This document shows, piece by piece, positions 21,856-28,737 of a stretch of 64,000 bases of DNA (position 1 is the stretch's first letter; every line of letters begins with the position of its first letter). The position numbers and the translations under genes are program-made. The notes beneath the pieces are model-generated. The model saw only the letters and a list, made by a program, of their open reading frames with translations. It ran no database searches and had not been told where the DNA came from. This stretch comes from Dehalococcoidia bacterium (GTDB taxonomy: Bacteria > Chloroflexota > Dehalococcoidia > Plut-88900). The stretch is from NCBI GenBank assembly GCA_965249275.1, contig CBDFLQ010000007.1, positions 768,001 through 832,000 on the forward strand. The letters run 5' to 3'.

Positions 21856-21884
21856 TTGACATTCCTGCCCATGATCGTTACATT
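21856..21884 (+). promoter_or_regulatory. Sigma70-type promoter for the RNA-NYN1 unit
   Basis: TTGACA-17 bp-TACATT. Confidence 0.75.
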
Positions 21885-21889
21885 TGCAG

Positions 21890-21983
21890 TATTAGAATCC
21901 ATTGGGTTACCTCCCGGTATACGGGACAAATAGGCACCCAATCATTAAAACCCCAGGGACGCCTTCGGCGTCCCTGAATTTTT
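21890..21983 (+). ncRNA. Putative structured small RNA plus terminator upstream of NYN1
   Basis: ATTGGGT(21901-07)/ACCCAAT(21936-42) enclosing TCCCG-GTATA-CGGGA; then CAGGGACGC-CTTCG-GCGTCCCTG(21954-76)-AATTTTT. Confidence 0.65.
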
Positions 21984-21999
21984 AGGAAACAATCTGACA

Positions 22000-22629
22000 A
22001 TGTCCATCGCCGCGAGAGAGCAGAATCGGATTCGCGTGATCGTGTTTGTCGACTTCTGGAACTTTCAGTTAATGGTCAACGACTTAGAGCGTGGTTTCCC
22101 GGTCGACTGGAAGAAGTTGGGACCCCTAATCGCACGGACTGCCCTGGAGGTCGTAGACGCTGACTCGCAGTTATCCTATCAAGGTATGAACGTATACGCT
22201 TCCTTTGATCCATTCGGTAAAAAGGACGAGGCCTTTCGCAGATGGGCTACGAATAGCCTGGACAAATTTTCCGGTGTACAGGTGACCATGATTCCACGGC
22301 AACGAAAGCGAAAGGGGTCCGTTTGCCCAGCATGTCATGAAGAGTTGTCGACATGTTACAAATGCGGTTCGGACATGAGAGGCACGGAAGAAAAGGGAGT
22401 CGATACACGCATTGTGACCGACATGATTAAGTTGGCTTGGGTTGACAACTATGATGTCGCCGTATTGCTTTCCTCGGACAAAGACTTCGTACCTGTCGTC
22501 GAATTTCTCGGTACACGAGGTATTAAGACCATACATGCAGCCTTTCCGCCTCAGGGTTCAATGCTGACGCAGCATTGCTGGGGCAACATCAGCATACCTA
22601 ACACAATGGAACAATTTAGACGCGCTTAG
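22000..22629 (+). CDS. NYN-domain (LabA/DUF88, PIN-like) RNase with zinc-ribbon insertion (NYN1)
   Basis: FVDFWN, CPAC-x6-CYKC, EEKGVD, SSDKDF; lower GC than flanks. Confidence 0.9.
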   Translation: MSIAAREQNRIRVIVFVDFWNFQLMVNDLERGFPVDWKKLGPLIARTALEVVDADSQLSYQGMNVYASFDPFGKKDEAFRRWATNSLDKFSGVQVTMIPRQRKRKGSVCPACHEELSTCYKCGSDMRGTEEKGVDTRIVTDMIKLAWVDNYDVAVLLSSDKDFVPVVEFLGTRGIKTIHAAFPPQGSMLTQHCWGNISIPNTMEQFRRA

Positions 22630-22682
22630 CCTCACGTTCGAGACTCACTTGCTCCTCCACCCGCAAGAAAATTGGTGAAGGT

Positions 22683-24020
22683 TTATTTGCCAATGCAGAA
22701 GCGGGAGAAGATGGTGTGGAGGAGGTCTTCGGTCACGGTCTCGCCGGTGATTTCTCCGAGGGCGGTCAGGGCGGCGGTGAGGTCTATGGTGACGAAGTCG
22801 TCGGGCAGGCCTTTAGTTAGGGCATTTTCCGCAGAGGCAAGGTGAGTTGCAGCAGATTCCAGGGCCGACTTGTGCCGAGCATTGGACACCAGTACCTCAC
22901 CCGACCCCAAACTCTTGCCGTTGAGCGCCACCTCAACCATCCTCTCCCTCAGCTCATCCAGGCCCTCCCCCGTGATCATGGAGGCCCGTACGGCGCCCGA
23001 TGGAACAACAGAGGGGTCGGCAATGTCCGGGAGGTCTGACTTGTTGGCGACCGTCACTGCTCCTTTGCCCGGGAGCCGACCAATCAGATTGAGGTCCTGG
23101 TCGGTGAGAGGTTGACTGGAGTCAAGGACGAGCAGGACAAGGTCGGCTTGGGCGAGAGCCTTGCGGCTGCGCTCTATGCCGAGATGCTCAACGGGGTCAG
23201 AGGTGTCGGTCAGTCCGGCGGTGTCCACCAGCACAAATGGGATGCCGTCGATATTGGTCACCTCTTCGACCGTGTCCCGGGTTGTACCGGCGATGGGTGT
23301 CACAATGGCCCTCTCTTGGTCGAGTAGGCGGTTGAGGAGGCTCGACTTGCCGACGTTGGGACGCCCCACTATCGCGACCCGGACGCCGTGGCGATAGACA
23401 ATACCCGTATCGGCGGCGCTAAGGAGTTGGCGGACAGCGGAAGCCGCGTCACGGATTGCAGGGAGGGGATCTTCGAGTGGGACATCGTCGTCCGGGAAGT
23501 CGATTCGCGCGGTTAGGTAGGCCAGGACTTCCAAAATGGCGGTGCGGGCTTCCTTGATACGCTGGGAGAGTCCGCCCTGAAGCCCGTTCATAGCAACTCT
23601 CAAGCTAGCGTCGGTCTTGGCTTCTATGACATCCAGGACGGCTTCGGCCTGGGTGAGATCTATGCGTCCGTTGAGGAAGGCGCGCAGGGTGAACTCGCCG
23701 GGACCCGCGGCACGGGCCCCGCAACGGAGAAGGGCTTCGAGAACGGCCTGCAGGGGTACGAGGCCGCCGTGCCCGTATATCTCGACGGTGTCCTCGCAGG
23801 TGTAGCTGTTGGGGGCCAGCATGCAGGTAGCCATCACCTCATCGAGGATCGACCCGTCGTCAGGGTCGACTATCCGGCCACGGCTCATATAGCGGTGGGA
23901 TAGTCGGCCGCTAAACACCTTCCCGGCAAGGGCAAGGGAATCGGGGCCGGAGAGCCGCACAACACCGATGGCCCCCTCACCTATGGGTGTGGCAATTGCG
24001 GCTATGGTATCGTCGTACAC
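22683..24020 (-). CDS. mnmE: tRNA modification GTPase MnmE/TrmE
   Basis: DTIAAIATP, GRPNVGKSS, GTTRD, DTAG, NKSD, C-terminal FSRFCIGK; GTG start after GGGAGG. Confidence 0.97.
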   Translation of the reverse strand: MYDDTIAAIATPIGEGAIGVVRLSGPDSLALAGKVFSGRLSHRYMSRGRIVDPDDGSILDEVMATCMLAPNSYTCEDTVEIYGHGGLVPLQAVLEALLRCGARAAGPGEFTLRAFLNGRIDLTQAEAVLDVIEAKTDASLRVAMNGLQGGLSQRIKEARTAILEVLAYLTARIDFPDDDVPLEDPLPAIRDAASAVRQLLSAADTGIVYRHGVRVAIVGRPNVGKSSLLNRLLDQERAIVTPIAGTTRDTVEEVTNIDGIPFVLVDTAGLTDTSDPVEHLGIERSRKALAQADLVLLVLDSSQPLTDQDLNLIGRLPGKGAVTVANKSDLPDIADPSVVPSGAVRASMITGEGLDELRERMVEVALNGKSLGSGEVLVSNARHKSALESAATHLASAENALTKGLPDDFVTIDLTAALTALGEITGETVTEDLLHTIFSRFCIGK

Positions 24021-24118
24021 AGCGTCGGGCCTCCCTCGCAGCAATTATATGCCAAGGGAGAAAACTCCAATGATGCAGGGGTGTCGGCTATACTGGGCCG
24101 GACTTCGGGAGGTCAAGA

Positions 24119-24802
24119 TTGCACAGACTCATCTTGTTCGACGTAGACCAGACTCTCATTAGTACCAGGGGCGGTGACCGAAAGGCACTCAACGATACAT
24201 TCCAGGAGCTGCATGGCATTGACGACGCCTTCGAAGGAATGAGTTTCGGGGGGCGGATGGACCTATCAATAATGGGCCAGGTCTATTCGCATTGGGGAGT
24301 CGCCGAAGTGGATCGGAGTCTCGGCGATTTCAAGGCACGGTATTTCGAGCTTCTGGAGCTGGTGCTGAAGGACTGGGAAATGGGTATCGTGTACCCGGGT
24401 ATACCTGAGTTGCTTAGAGCCCTGGACTCGAGAGCTGGGGTGCAGATAGGTCTGGCTACCGGGAACTTCCGGGAGTCGGCATTCATCAAGCTGCGGAAAT
24501 ATGGGCTTTACACCTTCTTTAAGGAAGGCGGCTTTGGGGGAGACCATCCGAACCGCCCCGAGGTCGTAGCCGACGCCATAGTCAAATGTCAGACACTCTC
24601 AGGGAAAGTCTACGAACGTGAGGATATTTTCGTCATCGGAGACTCGATTTCCGACGTGGAGGCGGGTCGGGCCAACGGCATAAACTCGGTAGCGGTGGCG
24701 ACGGGTCACTACGACACCACGAAGTTGAAGTCATTAGGCCCGACCTTCGTCTTCGAAGACCTGTCGGATACGGAGAAGGTGTTGGGCGCGTTGCTAGGCT
24801 AG
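24119..24802 (+). CDS. HAD-superfamily phosphatase
   Basis: LFDVDQTL, ATGN, VIGDSISDV. Confidence 0.9.
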   Translation: MHRLILFDVDQTLISTRGGDRKALNDTFQELHGIDDAFEGMSFGGRMDLSIMGQVYSHWGVAEVDRSLGDFKARYFELLELVLKDWEMGIVYPGIPELLRALDSRAGVQIGLATGNFRESAFIKLRKYGLYTFFKEGGFGGDHPNRPEVVADAIVKCQTLSGKVYEREDIFVIGDSISDVEAGRANGINSVAVATGHYDTTKLKSLGPTFVFEDLSDTEKVLGALLG

Positions 24803-24813
24803 GTGAGTGCGGA

Positions 24814-25527
24814 ATGTCCAGCTTTCAAAGACTTGTCCTCTTCGACGTAGATCTAACCCTGATCACCTCCACCGCGTGCAACCTACTCGCACTGAATAGC
24901 GCCTTTGAGCAAGTCCACGGAATACCCGATGCCTTTAATGACGTGCTGTTTGGCGGCGGACTGGACTTGCGGCTTATAACTGAGATGTATAGGAAATGGG
25001 GGCTGACAAAGGGCAACCTAGATGAACTCCCAGACCTATCGGAATTCAAGGCTGTCTACTTCGATCACCTTGAAAGGGGATTAGAGACCTGGACGGACGG
25101 CTACATATGTCCGGGGGCGAGGGAGGTACTGGAGGCGCTGGCACGGGAGCCGGGGGTGCAGCTGGGTTTGGAGACGGGCAATTTCAGGGAGGCCGCCTTC
25201 ATCAAGCTGCGTAGATTTGGGCTGGACAATTTTTTCGAAGTGGGAGGATTCGGGGGAGACTGGATGACCCGTACGGAAGTGGTGGCCGACGCTATAGCCA
25301 AGTGCCAGGCTATCTCGGGTAGGGTCTACGACCCAGGAGAAATATTTCTTATCGGCGACTCACCTTCGGACGTGGAGGCGGGGAAGGCAAACGAGATCAA
25401 CACAGTGGCGGTGGCGACGGGTCGTTGTGACACGGAGACACTACGGGCGCTGGGGCCGACGTTCGTCTTCGAAGACCTGTCGGATACGAAGAAGGTGTTG
25501 GACGCGCTCCTGGGAAGGGCGGGCTAG
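24814..25527 (+). CDS. HAD-superfamily phosphatase (tandem paralog)
   Basis: LFDVDLTL, ETGN, LIGDSPSDV. Confidence 0.9.
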   Translation: MSSFQRLVLFDVDLTLITSTACNLLALNSAFEQVHGIPDAFNDVLFGGGLDLRLITEMYRKWGLTKGNLDELPDLSEFKAVYFDHLERGLETWTDGYICPGAREVLEALAREPGVQLGLETGNFREAAFIKLRRFGLDNFFEVGGFGGDWMTRTEVVADAIAKCQAISGRVYDPGEIFLIGDSPSDVEAGKANEINTVAVATGRCDTETLRALGPTFVFEDLSDTKKVLDALLGRAG

Positions 25528-26990
25528 CCCGAGCTAAGCGATCTCTGGAACATGTGGTACTGCACGAACTTGGCCAGGGACCGGCAGGCCCTGCGCAGCG
25601 ATGTGTAGGCAAGGAGGCCCGCTTCGGAGAACTCCTGCTGGAGCTTCTGATAGTCCATCTTGATGCGGGGGTCCCGGATGCGGACCGGCAGCAGGATGAC
25701 GACAGGCTTGCCGTTGGAATGGTCCCTGGCGATCTCTGCAAAGTCCGCGGCAACGGCCTTTTCGGGCTCGGACGTAACGTCGGTGTATTCGTTGAGGCTA
25801 GGGATCATTAGCAGCATGTCGATGGACGGGTCTGCAGTGACGAGGCGCGCGGCCTGTTGCTGCTTGTCCCGGACATTGGCCATGAAGGAGAGGTCGACCG
25901 GGTTTCGGACGCTGTTTCCAGCGTCGGGGATGAACTCCCGGAGACGGGCGCTGGTCTCGGAGGACAGCTCAGCCATGTCCAGGCCTTCTTCAGAGCAGAT
26001 GTCCGAGGCAGCGACACTGTTGCCCCCACCGCTGCCGATCATGGCGAGTCGGTTGCTTCGAGGAGCTGGTAGCAGGTTGAAGGCCTGCATGACGTCTACG
26101 ACTTCTTCGACTGAACCGGCGCGGACGGCGCCCGTTTGTCGGAAGAAGGCATCCCATATCGCGCCCTGGCCGGCTAGGGAGCCGGTGTGGGAGGCAGCAG
26201 CTCGTGAGCCTGATTCGCTGAGGCCGCCCTTCCAGATGATTACGGGTTTACGTGGGTTTATCTCCTGCACCAGCTTCAAGAGCTTCGGGCCGTTCTTGAC
26301 ACCCTCAATGTACATGCCGATGGTATTGGTGCTCTCGTCCTGGCCCAGGAACTCAAGGTAGTCCGCGCTTTCGAGGACCAGTGCATTGCCAAAGCTGATT
26401 ACCTTGCTGACTCCTATCCCAACATCCGCGGCTCGGAATATGAAGTCCATGGCATGCCCGCCGCTCTGGGCGACAAAGGCGGCGCTACCGGACCTGTTGG
26501 TAATGTCGCCGATGGTGGAGAACTGGGCCGCCGGAGAGTGTACGCCGAGGCAGTTGGGCCCAACGACGCGGATGTGATTTCGGGTGGCTACCTCCCTGAC
26601 GACCTTTTCCATCTCGACGCCTTCGGCCGTGGAGGTCTCCGAGAAGCCGGAGGTGAAGACGTGGACATTGAGCGCGCCAACAGAGGCGCAGTCTTCCAGC
26701 ACCGTTGCCAGGAACCGGGCAGGTACGGAGACGGTCACCATTTCGGGGACCTCAGGGAGGGCGGAAACAGAGGGGTAAGACTTGAGGCCGAGAATTTCGT
26801 CGGCTTTGGGATTGACGGGATAAATCTTGCCGGGATAGCCGAGCTTGAGGAGATAGGGGATGAACTGGCCCGAGGGGTTACTCCAGCCGGGACCTTTCGC
26901 CGAGGTGATTCGGGAGGCGCCCACTAAAGCTACGGATTTGGGATTGAACGCCTTGGCGAAGTCGGGGCCGAGGGGGGTTATGGATTGAAT
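25524..26990 (-). CDS. Acyl-CoA synthetase (NDP-forming) alpha subunit / CoA-binding protein
   Basis: AFNPKSVALVGAS, GPNCLG, QSGG, AAASHTGSLAG (phospho-His), RNPVD; family-like N-terminus extends upstream of the track start to a probable ATT start. Confidence 0.88.
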   Translation of the reverse strand: MQSITPLGPDFAKAFNPKSVALVGASRITSAKGPGWSNPSGQFIPYLLKLGYPGKIYPVNPKADEILGLKSYPSVSALPEVPEMVTVSVPARFLATVLEDCASVGALNVHVFTSGFSETSTAEGVEMEKVVREVATRNHIRVVGPNCLGVHSPAAQFSTIGDITNRSGSAAFVAQSGGHAMDFIFRAADVGIGVSKVISFGNALVLESADYLEFLGQDESTNTIGMYIEGVKNGPKLLKLVQEINPRKPVIIWKGGLSESGSRAAASHTGSLAGQGAIWDAFFRQTGAVRAGSVEEVVDVMQAFNLLPAPRSNRLAMIGSGGGNSVAASDICSEEGLDMAELSSETSARLREFIPDAGNSVRNPVDLSFMANVRDKQQQAARLVTADPSIDMLLMIPSLNEYTDVTSEPEKAVAADFAEIARDHSNGKPVVILLPVRIRDPRIKMDYQKLQQEFSEAGLLAYTSLRRACRSLAKFVQYHMFQRSLSSG

Positions 26991-27104
26991 GAGTCTTTGT
27001 CCTTATAAAGGTTGCGGTATCGGCTGAGAGGCCCAGGGCTAAAGCTCCGGAACGCCGGTATTATAGCCGTCTGTGGGAGGAGCCTCAAGATGGGGCTGGG
27101 AGCA

Positions 27105-27734
27105 TCACCAATTCGCCGGTTTCGTGATGACGCCAACAGGGTCGGTTAGACTGTCAGGAAACTGGCTGATCCTCAGATGGCTCTTCCAGAGACGCTTGAC
27201 GTAGGTCGCTGCTTTGGCCAGGTCCATGGGGCTGGTGTTCCTGGCATCCGGGTTCACGAGGGTGACTCGAAGGTCCAGGTCGTCCCTGACGGACCTCATC
27301 GCACCGGCGAAATCAGCGTCATTGGAGACGACGACCGCCTGCTCATATTCCCCTTTGAAGCCATCGATCAAGAGTCGAGTCGCCAGATTTACGTCCGATC
27401 CCTTCTCTTCCGAGTCCTTAACCAAAACATGAGCGGGCAGGCCCGGTACGGGCTCGGCAAGAGGACGACGCTTTACTCCAGAGCGGAAGACGCCGTAGTA
27501 GAACTCAAAGTCCGGGAGGGTTGCCAGTGCTCTCAGGTACGCCTGCTGTCTTTGGGGTTGGGCAAGATTGCTGGGACGTGCATCTAATCGGGCGGTGAAG
27601 TAGCAAATCTTGTGGATGGTGTCCAGGGGAAAGAGGGTCTCGGCCATCTTCCGTAGGTCTAGCCATCTGAATGGGGTGTCTTTAAGGGCTCGGTAGTAGA
27701 GATTGAAGCCATCAATGTACAGATTGGTTATCAA
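27105..27734 (-). CDS. NYN-domain (PIN-like) RNase (NYN2)
   Basis: TNLYIDGFNLYY, YFTA, EEKGSDVNLA, VVSNDADF; TTG start after AGGA. Confidence 0.9.
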   Translation of the reverse strand: MITNLYIDGFNLYYRALKDTPFRWLDLRKMAETLFPLDTIHKICYFTARLDARPSNLAQPQRQQAYLRALATLPDFEFYYGVFRSGVKRRPLAEPVPGLPAHVLVKDSEEKGSDVNLATRLLIDGFKGEYEQAVVVSNDADFAGAMRSVRDDLDLRVTLVNPDARNTSPMDLAKAATYVKRLWKSHLRISQFPDSLTDPVGVITKPANW

Positions 27735-27756
27735 TCTCCGGTTCCTAATTCTCAAT

Positions 27757-27820
27757 CAAAGACAGAGACCGCCCTTTGAGGCGGTCTCGACCCTACCGCC
27801 GAGGCGATAGGGGTGGTAAA
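27757..27820 (-). ncRNA. Putative small RNA plus terminator upstream of NYN2 (copy 1)
   Basis: Minus strand: CCCTATCGC-CTCG-GCGGTAGGG hairpin, then GAGACCGCC-TCAAAG-GGCGGTCTC-TGTCTTT. Confidence 0.65.
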
Positions 27821-27823
27821 GGC

Positions 27824-27852
27824 AGAATAACTACCAGACACGCATCTGTCAA
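27824..27852 (-). promoter_or_regulatory. Sigma70-type promoter for the RNA-NYN2 unit
   Basis: Minus strand TTGACA-17 bp-TATTCT; copy 2 keeps TATTCT with -35 GCGACA. Confidence 0.75.
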
Positions 27853-28224
27853 TGCACTGTGCCAGTTCATCCGCGCACACAACGAAAAGGGTGTTTCGTC
27901 GGTATTCCCGCGACGATGGATACAAAGACAGAGACCGCCCTTTGAGGCGGTCTCGACTCTACCGTCGAATCGATAGGGGTGGTAAGGACAGAATAACTAG
28001 CAGACACGAATTTGTCGCTGCTTTTACCACTTCATCTGCGCACACAACGGAAAGGGAGTTTCGTTGGTATTCCACGTGACGATAGGCTGGGTTGGGGCAC
28101 TGGTAGCTTCCTGAACGCTAAGGTATACTCGCGGGCGCATGGCCCCGCCGCCACACTATCCTGAGCGAGGGCCAAGGAGACCTCTATATTAGACGACAGT
28201 TACAGAAACCATCTTAGGCCGAGA

Positions 28225-28737
28225 GTGGCCATTTTCATCGACGGAAGCAATCTTTATCATGCCATGGAAGAGTCCTGCAGACGAACGGACCTGAACTTCC
28301 CGAGGTTCGTGCAGAAATTGCTGCGGGGACGCCATCTGCTGAGGACCTATTACTACAATGTCCTCCAGGACAGCAGACGCAAGCCGCAGGGATTCGGGCA
28401 GCAGCAGAAGTTCCTCTCGGTGCTCCACAACACACCTTACCTGGAAGTGAAACTGGGCCGCTCCGCGATCAGGAAAGGCGTGGCGGTGGAAAAGGGCGTG
28501 GATATAATGCTGGCCACAGACATGCTCCAGTTAGCATGGAAAGACCTGTATGACACCGCAGTCCTGGTGAGCGGGGACGCCGACTTCGCCTACGCGGTAA
28601 AGACAGTCAAGGACATGGGCAAGTTCGTGGAAGTGGCCTGCTTCGAAGTCAATCAATCGAAAGATCTGGTAGAAATATCAGATTCTATAATTGAGCTTTC
28701 ACCGGAATTCTTCGAAGGGGTCTGGGCTAACAACTAA
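28225..28737 (+). CDS. NYN-domain LabA/DUF88 protein (NYN3); start may be ATA at 28186
   Basis: VAIFIDGSN, EKGVD, VSGDADF; AAGGAG at 28174-79; TATACT at ~28124. Confidence 0.9.
   Translation: MAIFIDGSNLYHAMEESCRRTDLNFPRFVQKLLRGRHLLRTYYYNVLQDSRRKPQGFGQQQKFLSVLHNTPYLEVKLGRSAIRKGVAVEKGVDIMLATDMLQLAWKDLYDTAVLVSGDADFAYAVKTVKDMGKFVEVACFEVNQSKDLVEISDSIIELSPEFFEGVWANN

Follow-up and report, generated by a model that had tools for sequence, protein, structure and literature searches.

The two small RNAs that precede NYN-domain RNase genes in the window, the whole 64-kb stretch of DNA that was analysed, are by comparative sequence analysis real, conserved RNA genes, each with a covarying structure of its own. 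Across phyla, plasmids and a prophage each RNA co-occurs with its own NYN subfamily in the sequences compared, and this close tie between RNA and protein is sound as a new annotation whatever the mechanism behind it. The proteins concerned, NYN1 and NYN2, are probably (at a rough probability of 0.55) the protein halves of type III-like modules in which a toxin is paired with an RNA antitoxin. The positions of the features are collected in Table 1.

Table 1. Features of the NYN1 and NYN2 modules and of the comparison gene NYN3, in window coordinates
Feature	Position	Strand	Basis
Promoter of NYN1-type RNA, sigma-70-like	21856..21884	+	TTGACA-17-TACATT, 10/12 consensus matches
NYN1-type small RNA, ~96 nt	21888..21983	+	Model R2, 70.8 bits, E 1.9e-16
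NYN1, NYN-domain RNase	22000..22629	+	ATG start 16 nt past RNA; Pfam NYN E 1.5e-14
NYN2, HEC-09-type NYN-domain RNase	27105..27734	-	TTG start 22 nt past RNA; Pfam NYN E 1.2e-7
Proximal NYN2-type RNA unit	27757..27852	-	R1 match 73.2 bits, E 1e-18; promoter, terminator, covariation
Distal NYN2-type RNA unit	27923..28018	-	R1 match 66.2 bits; direct repeat of proximal unit
NYN3, LabA/TIGR00288-like NYN protein, comparison case	28225..28737	+	Pfam NYN E 1.5e-25

The promoter of the NYN1-type RNA is composed of a -35 box at 21856-21861 and a -10 box at 21879-21884 separated by a spacer of 17, and in homologous NYN1 loci a promoter occupies the same position with a different sequence. The RNA contains a nested hairpin with an outer stem (21901-21907/21936-21942) and an inner stem (21913-21916/21922-21925), followed by the terminator stem (21954-21976) and a U tail encoded by AATTTTT, and is the sole match to its covariance model both in the window and in its own genome. 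In the NYN2 module the proximal promoter (TTGACA at 27852-27847 and TATTCT at 27829-27824, 10/12 consensus matches) precedes an RNA spanning 27820-27757, with hairpin H1 at 27812-27791 formed by 9 bp (27812-27804 paired with 27799-27791), hairpin H2, the terminator, at 27788-27765, and a U-rich tail. The promoter, nested hairpin and terminator that a preliminary description had proposed for NYN1, and the promoter, 9-bp hairpin and terminator proposed for NYN2, are all found where they had been placed and are not a chance pattern. The TTG start of NYN2 at 27734 is backed by homologues.

Absent from that description is a tandem duplication of the NYN2 cassette, with copies at 27757-27908 and 27923-28073 that are offset by ~166 nt and 86-89% identical in a repeat search; Tandem Repeats Finder at the settings used did not report this 166-nt duplication. 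The distal unit comprises an RNA at 27986-27923 with its terminator at 27954-27931 and has a weaker promoter (-35 GCGACA at 28018-28013, TATTCT at 27995-27990). Repeat searches give no short internal repeats in either the NYN1- or the NYN2-type RNA of the window, and both RNA regions are unique by BLAST of the own genome. Metatranscriptome contigs (Logan, four runs) are from relatives at 90-95% likeness, with ends, strand and level not readable from them; in some, the ~55-60-nt RNA motif alone matches and the flanking sequence is unrelated. One contig covers 27103-27470 at a depth of 2290 in one run.

The NYN2-type RNA defines family R1 (~65 nt), in which a C-rich 5' end is followed by a hairpin capped with UUCG and then by a terminator hairpin. 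Family R2, defined by the NYN1-type RNA, is a long hairpin in two parts with a terminator of the CCCCAGGG type after it. Double compensatory changes are present in 16 of the 17 pairs of the R1 seed (49 sequences) and in 12 of the 15 pairs of the R2 seed (58 sequences). With seed sequences chosen through fold-based filters and by eye, which inflates the percentages paired and leaves the compensatory changes unaffected, 92.9% of cells are paired in the R1 seed compared with 75.8% when shuffled (the observed value being reached by 0 of 500 shuffles) and 39-50% when the partners are slid, and 95.1% are paired in the R2 seed compared with 68.5% shuffled and 37-45% slid. Stems held by compensatory change indicate that in these alignments it is the shape that is conserved and not the sequence. 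The two RNAs are alike in architecture only, as had been thought from the window alone: each model finds just its own RNA there, with no cross-match of R1 to the NYN1-type RNA or of R2 to the NYN2-type RNA. Rfam 15 at permissive thresholds has no match at the window RNA positions, none to the RNAs in 12 diverse loci and, in seven plasmid or phage loci, only RNAI, which lies elsewhere than the RNAs. The two RNA families defined here are ones that Rfam does not have.

Linkage to the nuclease genes is close, R1 matching 96 of 100 sources with an NYN2-type gene (107 matches in all) and R2 matching 82 of 87 NYN1-family sources, with two of the five misses having <45 nt of upstream sequence. R1 was not found at three loci with distant NYN2-like genes (L028, L038 and L039, 34-40% identity) or at L068, which lies at a contig end. 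Conserved upstream structure among homologues, the check that had been suggested for the candidate modules, is therefore present for both RNAs, which covary and are tightly linked to their own NYN subfamily. The proposed order of promoter, RNA, terminator and nuclease gene proves to be the rule, with 90 of the 107 R1 copies lying ahead of the gene on its own strand, the terminator between RNA and NYN gene and a usual RNA-to-start gap of 12-25 nt. The remaining copies are upstream on the opposite strand (8), downstream and convergent (6) or downstream on the same strand (3), and the 16 R1 loci of non-standard orientation have one NYN2-type ORF each; two R2 copies, in L166 and L204, are divergent. 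For 68 of the 107 R1 copies a promoter matching the consensus at 9 or more of 12 positions lies ahead of the RNA; among random windows the figure is 0.9%. Because the linkage is kept in all four orientations, and many copies have their own promoter, the RNA is best regarded as a separate trans-acting gene and not as a leader.

NYN1, NYN2 and NYN3 all score above the Pfam NYN cut-off (PF01936); neither NYN1 nor NYN2 is covered by an NCBIfam model, and sequence-profile searches of the PDB gave no match. The acidic PIN-fold residues said earlier to be kept in NYN1 and NYN2 are invariant across both families, as D18, N21, E131, K132, D135, D160 and D162 in the NYN1 type (6 sequences) and as D8, N11, E110, K111, D114, D139 and D141 in the NYN2 type (60 sequences). 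NYN1 additionally has a CxxC...CxxC insert, of which the four cysteines are invariant in the family alignment together with the acidic residues. The AF2 model of NYN2 (pLDDT 94.7) has the NYN structures 2qip, 6fdl and 5yaa as its top matches, the latter two being MARF1 NYN domains matched with a Foldseek E value of ~2e-5. The match of NYN2 to the PADLOC profile HEC-09 (PDLC04163) is full-length (E 8e-35, positions 6-202 of 203), and that of NYN1 is partial (residues 114-186). HEC-09 is described, in the accessible part of the source, as an Hma-embedded candidate defence gene whose product is an NYN RNase resembling MARF1, in which three aspartates are conserved, and the same part states that when cloned with its native promoter region it gave no protection against the phages tested. 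Clustered at 50% identity, the bacterial NYN family numbers 395 clusters at E<=1e-30, a figure that rises to 2353 at E<=1e-10; relatives are known from at least 527 species-level genomes and from 442 plasmid records.

The NYN2-type module is found on plasmids of 4.5-4.6 kb, both of the typed ones (L215 and L226) being mobilisable, and L215 otherwise has only mobilisation genes and one hypothetical CDS. Further copies are on Leptospira and Paenarthrobacter plasmids and in a Mycobacterium prophage, where the module has the integrase on one side and the immunity repressor on the other, and the NYN1 type occurs with its RNA on a 6.3-kb plasmid. Two to three R1 units are present at 10 loci. On small E. 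coli and Klebsiella plasmids the NYN gene is preceded by tandem hairpin repeats of 29-33 nt, four in L215, L225 and L226 and five in L227, with one terminator. Start codons of 80 NYN2-type genes, assigned by a nearest-start heuristic, are ATG in 32, TTG in 25, GTG in 17, non-canonical in five and unassigned in one, TTG, GTG and CTG together accounting for 47.

Among 61 related genomes there are 32 R1 matches, of which 21 adjoin an intact NYN gene, two adjoin a disrupted one and nine are orphans; in the own genome R1 and R2 match only beside NYN genes. At the orphans of two genomes (G002 and G005) the interior of NYN2 has been cleanly deleted, with its first and last codons left in place, and in a third (G003) NYN1 is deleted likewise (window 22020-22602 missing) with an intact RNA scoring 70.7 bits. 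The NYN gene almost never occurs without the RNA, and the RNA often outlives clean deletion of the NYN ORF. Two pattern scans of viral contigs gave seven loci, five of them R1-positive. NYN accompanies the RNA at two of the five, one of these being truncated at the contig end; of the other three, L229 and L230 are strong orphans and one is weak. These five are too few for phage-borne orphan RNAs to be interpreted as anti-defence decoys.

NYN3 had been put forward as an internal control lacking the cassette. It has no RNA of its own, neither R1 nor R2 giving a match for it on its strand in the window, but the distal NYN2-type unit sits ~240 nt upstream on the opposite strand. Two genomes (G025 and G035) have NYN3-like genes and no R1 match anywhere. 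The window modules are surrounded by genes that look metabolic, as judged from their translations, with no recognisable defence island, and no small protein gene accompanies NYN1 or NYN2.

In the proposed mechanism the RNA would bind the NYN RNase and hold it inactive as a type III-like antitoxin, probably in the form of a pseudo-substrate hairpin. Regnase-type NYN enzymes such as Regnase-1 recognise stem-loops, which makes such a pseudo-substrate plausible. With the usual layout the nuclease would be made only through terminator read-through and from weak start codons, so that the RNA would be in large excess. Loss of the RNA supply, through plasmid loss or through transcription shut-off in phage infection, would then free the RNase and could lead to post-segregational killing or abortive infection. 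The weak starts, intervening terminator, duplicated RNA genes and plasmid hairpin arrays fit a type III-like toxin-antitoxin module, as do the rarity of NYN genes without the RNA and the retention of the RNA after NYN deletion, and the mobile context and the match of NYN2 to the HEC-09 defence candidate count in its favour. Counting against it are an RNA that in most loci, the window included, is not a short-repeat array as in ToxI, CptI and TenpI, the lack of defence reported for the tested relative HEC-09 in the accessible part of its description, the position of the window modules among metabolic genes, and the NYN2-like genes without the RNA, three of them distant and one at a contig end. 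Orphan RNAs that are intact and have good promoters also count against it, since the RNA may serve a separate function. A wider generalisation, for which the odds seem about even, extends this scheme to the stand-alone bacterial NYN RNases of the HEC-09 kind. Together they would make up one large superfamily, found across phyla, whose members are protein-RNA modules for toxin-antitoxin control or abortive infection, with the hairpin RNA acting as a pseudo-substrate inhibitor. It would be a fourth type III family, built on NYN, and would include two or more covarying RNA classes, with others probably to be added from enterobacterial and Xanthomonas plasmids. The generalisation would also explain why HEC-09 looked inert in an assay of the single gene.

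The same linkage data also fit an RNA that the NYN nuclease requires as a scaffold, specificity determinant, sensor or dedicated processing substrate instead of being inhibited by it, an unlikely arrangement that nevertheless deserves weight. The near absence of NYN genes without the RNA is consistent with it, and conservation of the hairpin shape and C-rich 5' end across phyla is as expected of a functional ribonucleoprotein; the hairpin conservation exceeds what is expected of a fast-evolving antitoxin, and an essential cofactor fits it equally well. A cofactor needs no large excess over its protein, however, and the terminator before the gene, the frequent TTG, GTG and CTG starts, the duplicated RNA genes and the four- to five-copy arrays all point to a protein that is kept low. 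Repeated clean ORF deletions with the RNA retained likewise suggest that the protein is the costly part.

If the hairpins did no more than tune NYN expression, as a transcription attenuator or an autoregulatory 5' UTR, they would be expected always 5' and on the same strand. Most R1 copies and nearly all R2 copies do lie directly upstream in this way with a terminator 12-25 nt before the start, but the 17 R1 copies that are on the opposite strand or downstream, many with their own promoter, the two divergent R2 copies, the orphan RNAs remaining after ORF deletion and the absence by eye of a conserved anti-terminator alternative argue otherwise, and the orientation data largely refute a leader, making it very improbable. 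There is similarly little to expect of a type I-like block of translation in which the RNA pairs with the NYN mRNA, for instance at a G-rich ribosome-binding site: the C-rich 5' end could by eye pair with the G-rich Shine-Dalgarno sequence of the Dehalococcoidia clade, but over 40 loci the predicted RNA-mRNA 5' duplexes are no better for cognate than for non-cognate partners (mean -39.0 vs -38.7 kcal/mol; cognate median rank 21.5 of 40, permutation fraction 0.30), and the compensatory stems conserve shape rather than sequence. Orphan copies in genomes and on two viral contigs would suit an RNA that is functionally unconnected with NYN, whether an independent small RNA or a mobile promoter-terminator cassette. 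Such hitch-hiking is scarcely credible given linkage at nearly all sources over many phyla and in four orientations, distinct RNA classes that go with distinct NYN subfamilies, and the restriction of R1 and R2 to the vicinity of NYN genes in the own genome.

The toxin-antitoxin reading, if true, would extend the protein-RNA (type III) class by a toxin fold and by RNA architectures that are new to it, and would give a function to a large bacterial family annotated just as 'NYN domain-containing protein'. The 4.6-kb E. coli plasmids offer a tractable model for the NYN-RNA pairing, and the RNA-protein linkage ought to alter the way in which candidates of the HEC-09 type are cloned and assayed.

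As outlined in the accessible part of a published account, in a typical type III operon the promoter is followed by a non-coding RNA, then by a Rho-independent terminator and finally by the endoribonuclease gene, and families are defined by toxin sequence homology, with three still listed (PMC13682666). The literature searched contains no type III family built on NYN. The NYN modules share with ToxIN, CptIN and TenpIN the order of promoter, RNA, terminator and endoribonuclease, including the terminator between RNA and gene. The lactococcal type III member is AbiQ, the preliminary description having named AbiF. RNA dosage that appears to exceed protein dosage, and plasmids and prophages as homes, are further likenesses to type III systems, and the tandem repeats on the small E. 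coli and Klebsiella plasmids resemble a ToxI array. Differences occur in the protein, the toxin candidate having an NYN/PIN-like and not a ToxN/AbiQ-like fold; NYN1 and NYN2 match Pfam NYN only and the NYN2 model matches NYN structures, which places them outside the ToxN-like families. The RNA differs in being mostly a single two-hairpin unit instead of a repeat array, the window loci having no short tandem antitoxin repeats and only the whole ~166-nt NYN2 unit duplicated, and in that its gene need not share the orientation of the nuclease gene. Unlike HEC-09, which the accessible part of its source presents as a single-gene candidate, NYN2 has an RNA partner, and unlike the Hma-embedded HEC-09 the window copies are in no recognisable defence island. 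NYN2 shares its fold and acidic active site with MARF1 and other eukaryotic NYN RNases, whereas these enzymes are not known to have a dedicated partner RNA gene and work in another cellular setting. VapBC and similar systems are small, mobile two-gene modules with a PIN-like metal-dependent RNase as toxin. The NYN modules have such an RNase as the presumed toxin as well, and in place of the upstream-encoded protein antitoxin of VapBC they have a conserved RNA.

Inspection of the NYN2 locus shows a feature overlooked in the preliminary description, in that the promoter-hairpin-terminator cassette is doubled in tandem, with its units spaced ~166 nt apart and sharing 86-89% identity. The scan and search results for the window are collected in the table, where R1 and R2 are the covariance models for the NYN2-type and NYN1-type small RNAs, respectively. 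Both promoters named in the preliminary description are recovered by a neutral consensus scan, and BLAST finds no further copies of either window RNA region elsewhere in the 2.9-Mb genome. The closest syntenic relative (L019, 1105-1499, on G003:C7) carries three tandem RNA units before the NYN2 orthologue, so the unit number varies within the genus. A second NYN2-type module of the source genome (L033, G000:C5:50313-51013, 46% protein identity) has its own diverged R1 RNA (59.2 bits), and its start codon may be ATC because ATG, GTG, and TTG are absent near the conserved N terminus. Between the NYN modules of the window lie two adjacent paralogous plus-strand ORFs of 227 and 237 amino acids (24119-24802 and 24814-25527), with long direct repeats at 72-89% identity reflecting a tandem gene duplication. 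Just 3' of the NYN2 stop codon a promoter-like TTGAGG-17-TATAAT (27088-27060, minus strand, 10/12 matches) probably serves the next minus-strand gene.

Features of the NYN modules in the window
Feature	Position	Strand	Remark
NYN1	22000-22629	+	NYN-domain ORF
NYN2	27105-27734	-	NYN-domain ORF
NYN3	28225-28737	+	NYN-domain ORF
Promoter of NYN1-side RNA	21856-21884	+	10/12 matches, neutral consensus scan
Promoter of NYN2-side RNA	27852-27824	-	10/12 matches, neutral consensus scan
Terminator	21954-21976		neutral consensus scan
Terminator	27788-27765		neutral consensus scan
Terminator	27954-27931		neutral consensus scan
R1 match	27757-27820		one of only two R1 matches
R1 match	27923-27986		one of only two R1 matches
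R2 match	21888-21983		only R2 match

Close homologues of NYN2 in related genomes have differing flanks and promoter sequences and retain the RNA element. The NYN2-type RNA is composed of a C-rich 5' end, a hairpin mostly capped by UUCG, a 2-3-nt linker, and a GC-rich terminator hairpin with a U-rich tail. With each species represented by one genome, a scan returns at least 527 NYN2 relatives, and the best 80 of these loci belong, as assigned from record titles, to Chloroflexota, Actinomycetota, Acidobacteriota, Gemmatimonadota, Verrucomicrobiota, Proteobacteria, and candidate phyla. A fold-based filter left 84 R1 candidates in 64 loci, and the seed (n = 49) comprises 47 sequences chosen by eye together with the two window units. 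Compensatory double changes occur in 16/16 RNAalifold pairs of this seed, and in our own 17-pair structure 92.9% of cells are paired compared with 75.8% in shuffled seeds (0/500 reach 92.9%) and 39-50% with the partners slid, the filter inflating the percentage paired and not the compensatory changes. The search set contained 100 sources, namely the window and 99 loci with an NYN2-type gene, with the duplicates L018 and L040, the NYN3-like L029 and L030, and the NYN1-type L017 omitted. R1 gives 107 matches (58 outside the seed) in 96 of these sources; the four with no match are three distant loci (L028, L038, and L039; 34-40% identity) and L068, whose contig stops 23 nt after the gene.

NYN1 homologues are scarce (1/60 related genomes and 5/400 genomes of the phylum), and at least 233 are present on metagenome contigs, of which the best 80 were kept. 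Upstream of the homologues a promoter precedes a long bipartite hairpin, which opens after a conserved CCC and is joined by an AUUA-rich linker to a CCCCAGGG-type terminator. The hairpin filter, which included the terminator helix only, gave 85 R2 candidates in 70 sources, and 58 chosen by eye form the seed. Double changes are found in 12/15 pairs, the outer stem covaries in 5/5 pairs, and 95.1% of cells are paired compared with 68.5% shuffled and 37-45% slid. The check for covarying upstream RNA structure proposed in the preliminary description has been run for homologues of NYN1 and NYN2, and compensatory changes are present in both. R2 matches 82/87 sources, including divergent matches in L166 and L204, and misses L162 and L172, which have <45 nt of upstream sequence, and L152, L160, and L161, in which a diverged opposite-strand copy is visible by eye.

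The acidic NYN residues pointed out in the preliminary description are invariant in the NYN1 and NYN2 families alike. Family members are single-domain proteins in almost all cases (about 205-230 residues) and form 395 clusters at 50% identity with E<=1e-30 and 2353 with E<=1e-10. The PADLOC profile for the candidate defence gene HEC-09 gives a full-length match to NYN2 (E 8e-35) and a partial one to NYN1. The consulted part of the HEC-09 report describes a MARF1-like NYN RNase embedded in Hma defence loci, with protection absent against the phages assayed and an RNA partner unmentioned in that part (bioRxiv 10.1101/2024.01.29.577857); how the HEC-09 construct was made may be relevant to whether it contained the RNA. 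Sequence profiles found no solved relative. For NYN2 an AlphaFold2 model (mean pLDDT 94.7) was built from 60 aligned sequences, and among PDB entries it most closely resembles 2qip and the MARF1 NYN domains 6fdl and 5yaa.

NYN2 relatives are found by protein in 442 plasmid records, most at <=30% identity. The R1 RNA lies upstream of NYN on a Leptospira plasmid (38.2 bits) and is convergent with NYN on a Paenarthrobacter plasmid (49.9 bits) and in the Mycobacterium prophage prophiGD43A-1 (60.7 bits), where the module is flanked by the integrase and the immunity repressor. On a 6.3-kb Novacetimonas plasmid an NYN1 relative is found with the R2 RNA (62.3 bits) 13 nt 5' of its start. Some plasmid NYN-domain genes of this broad family (e.g. 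OW969600.1 and CP030170.1) are labelled "6-hydroxy-3-succinoylpyridine 3-monooxygenase HspA" or hydroxylase, which looks like a propagated misannotation. A 444-nt metatranscriptome contig from one run matches the 3' half of NYN2 (window 27103-27470) at ~90% identity, with a mean word depth of ~2290 compared with ~14-20 for neighbouring genes, such contigs being from relatives and silent on RNA ends and levels, and their depth a poor measure of expression.

In the common layout the nuclease would be transcribed only by read-through of the RNA's terminator. Start codons of 80 NYN2-type genes, called heuristically as the closest in-frame start 5' of the YIDG motif, are ATG (32), TTG (25), GTG (17), and non-canonical CTG or ATC (5), with one unplaced. 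Two or three RNA units are present at ten loci, including the window (two) and G003 (three). Mobilisable 4.5-4.6-kb plasmids of E. coli and Klebsiella have a single promoter ahead of a tandem array of four 29-33-nt repeats (five on one plasmid), each composed of a C-rich linker and a 7-bp hairpin with compensatory changes in the last repeat, and the array is followed by a single strong terminator and then the ATG of NYN. R1 matches the last repeat and terminator weakly (17.9 bits), and the array module is present in 10/5426 complete E. coli genomes, plasmid-borne in all ten. By analogy of layout, these putative antitoxin arrays are the closest counterpart to ToxI. L220 (Klebsiella 5.7-kb plasmid), L221 (Xanthomonas), and L222 and L223 (E. 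coli plasmids) encode NYN proteins with ~28-33% identity to NYN2 and, by eye, their genes follow a promoter and a structured region, with a strong terminator 10-20 nt 5' of the start codon; a GCGAUUAAGUUACGCG-containing element occurs by eye in two copies in L220 and one in L223. These upstream regions look like further RNA classes.

Across 61 related genomes R1 gives 32 matches in 15 genomes. Cross-checking with protein matches and fetched regions places 21 beside an intact NYN2-type gene and 2 beside a disrupted one (L133, truncated, and L037, with three TGA codons), and 9 are orphans. Eight orphans were inspected, leaving out the weak match G007:2074996. Synteny was scored for the seven other than G010, and six of these are at the syntenic position of a paired locus whereas L131 (G059) is not. 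In G002 and G005 a clean deletion has removed NYN2 apart from ~11 codons at its start and ~3 at its end, with the RNA and promoter intact. In the same 61 genomes R2 matches the source genome, G036 (paired), and G003, where the NYN1 ORF interior (window 22020-22602) is exactly absent and the RNA is kept (70.7 bits). These orphan loci indicate repeated loss of the nuclease with retention of the RNA, among genomes that are related and hence non-independent samples. Apart from one at a contig end, no close family member lacking the RNA was seen, and three of the best 80 NYN2-type genes are broken (L051, L056, and L061). Judging from the genome comparison, the neighbouring RNA might serve NYN3 as well, as both persist in G002 and G005 after the NYN2 deletion, although NYN3-like genes elsewhere occur without an R1 RNA. 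Two IMG/VR viral contigs (L229, 1115-1178, and L230, 653-717) carry strong R1 copies (62.5 and 63.9 bits) with no NYN2-type ORF within the fetched flanks and an integrase-like ORF near the L229 copy; these orphan RNAs could be remnants or phage-borne decoys.

The placement of the RNA bears on whether it is purely a cis-acting leader of the NYN gene. R1 copies lie upstream on the gene's strand in 90/107 cases, with a typical distance of 12-25 nt to the start codon, whereas 8/107 are upstream on the opposite strand (all Acidobacteriota) and others are downstream, 6/107 convergent and 3/107 on the same strand. The 16 loci with a displaced RNA have one NYN2-type ORF apiece, which leaves no second copy for these RNAs to lead. 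At 68/107 R1 copies a sigma-70-like promoter (>=9/12 matches) ends 6-15 nt 5' of the RNA, a score reached by only 0.9% of random windows drawn from these loci, and 5/8 divergent copies have an 11/12 promoter. The orientations and own promoters together argue against a purely cis-acting leader.

Specific pairing of the RNA with the NYN mRNA is not supported, as the RNAs of 40 loci form duplexes with their own mRNA that are no better than those with mRNAs of other loci (median rank 21.5/40, permutation fraction 0.30). The chief alternative left standing has the RNA as a required cofactor or substrate of the nuclease, which accounts for the linkage as well as an antitoxin does but leaves unexplained the features that keep protein dosage below that of the RNA and the repeated loss of the ORF alone. 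We moderately favor the reading of a putative NYN RNase toxin with a candidate small RNA antidote.

A search of full-text literature found no paper tying an NYN protein to an RNA antitoxin, in agreement with the preliminary description, which knew of no characterised NYN-based type III toxin-antitoxin family. [quoted passage not shown] The NYN modules have this operon logic in common, and the enterobacterial plasmid modules also have a repeat array; in contrast, the NYN proteins fall outside the toxin families and the window modules do not have the antitoxin repeats, and for these two reasons the modules are kept apart from the known families. From their sequences they are filed here as putative modules that would work like a type III system, outside the known families.
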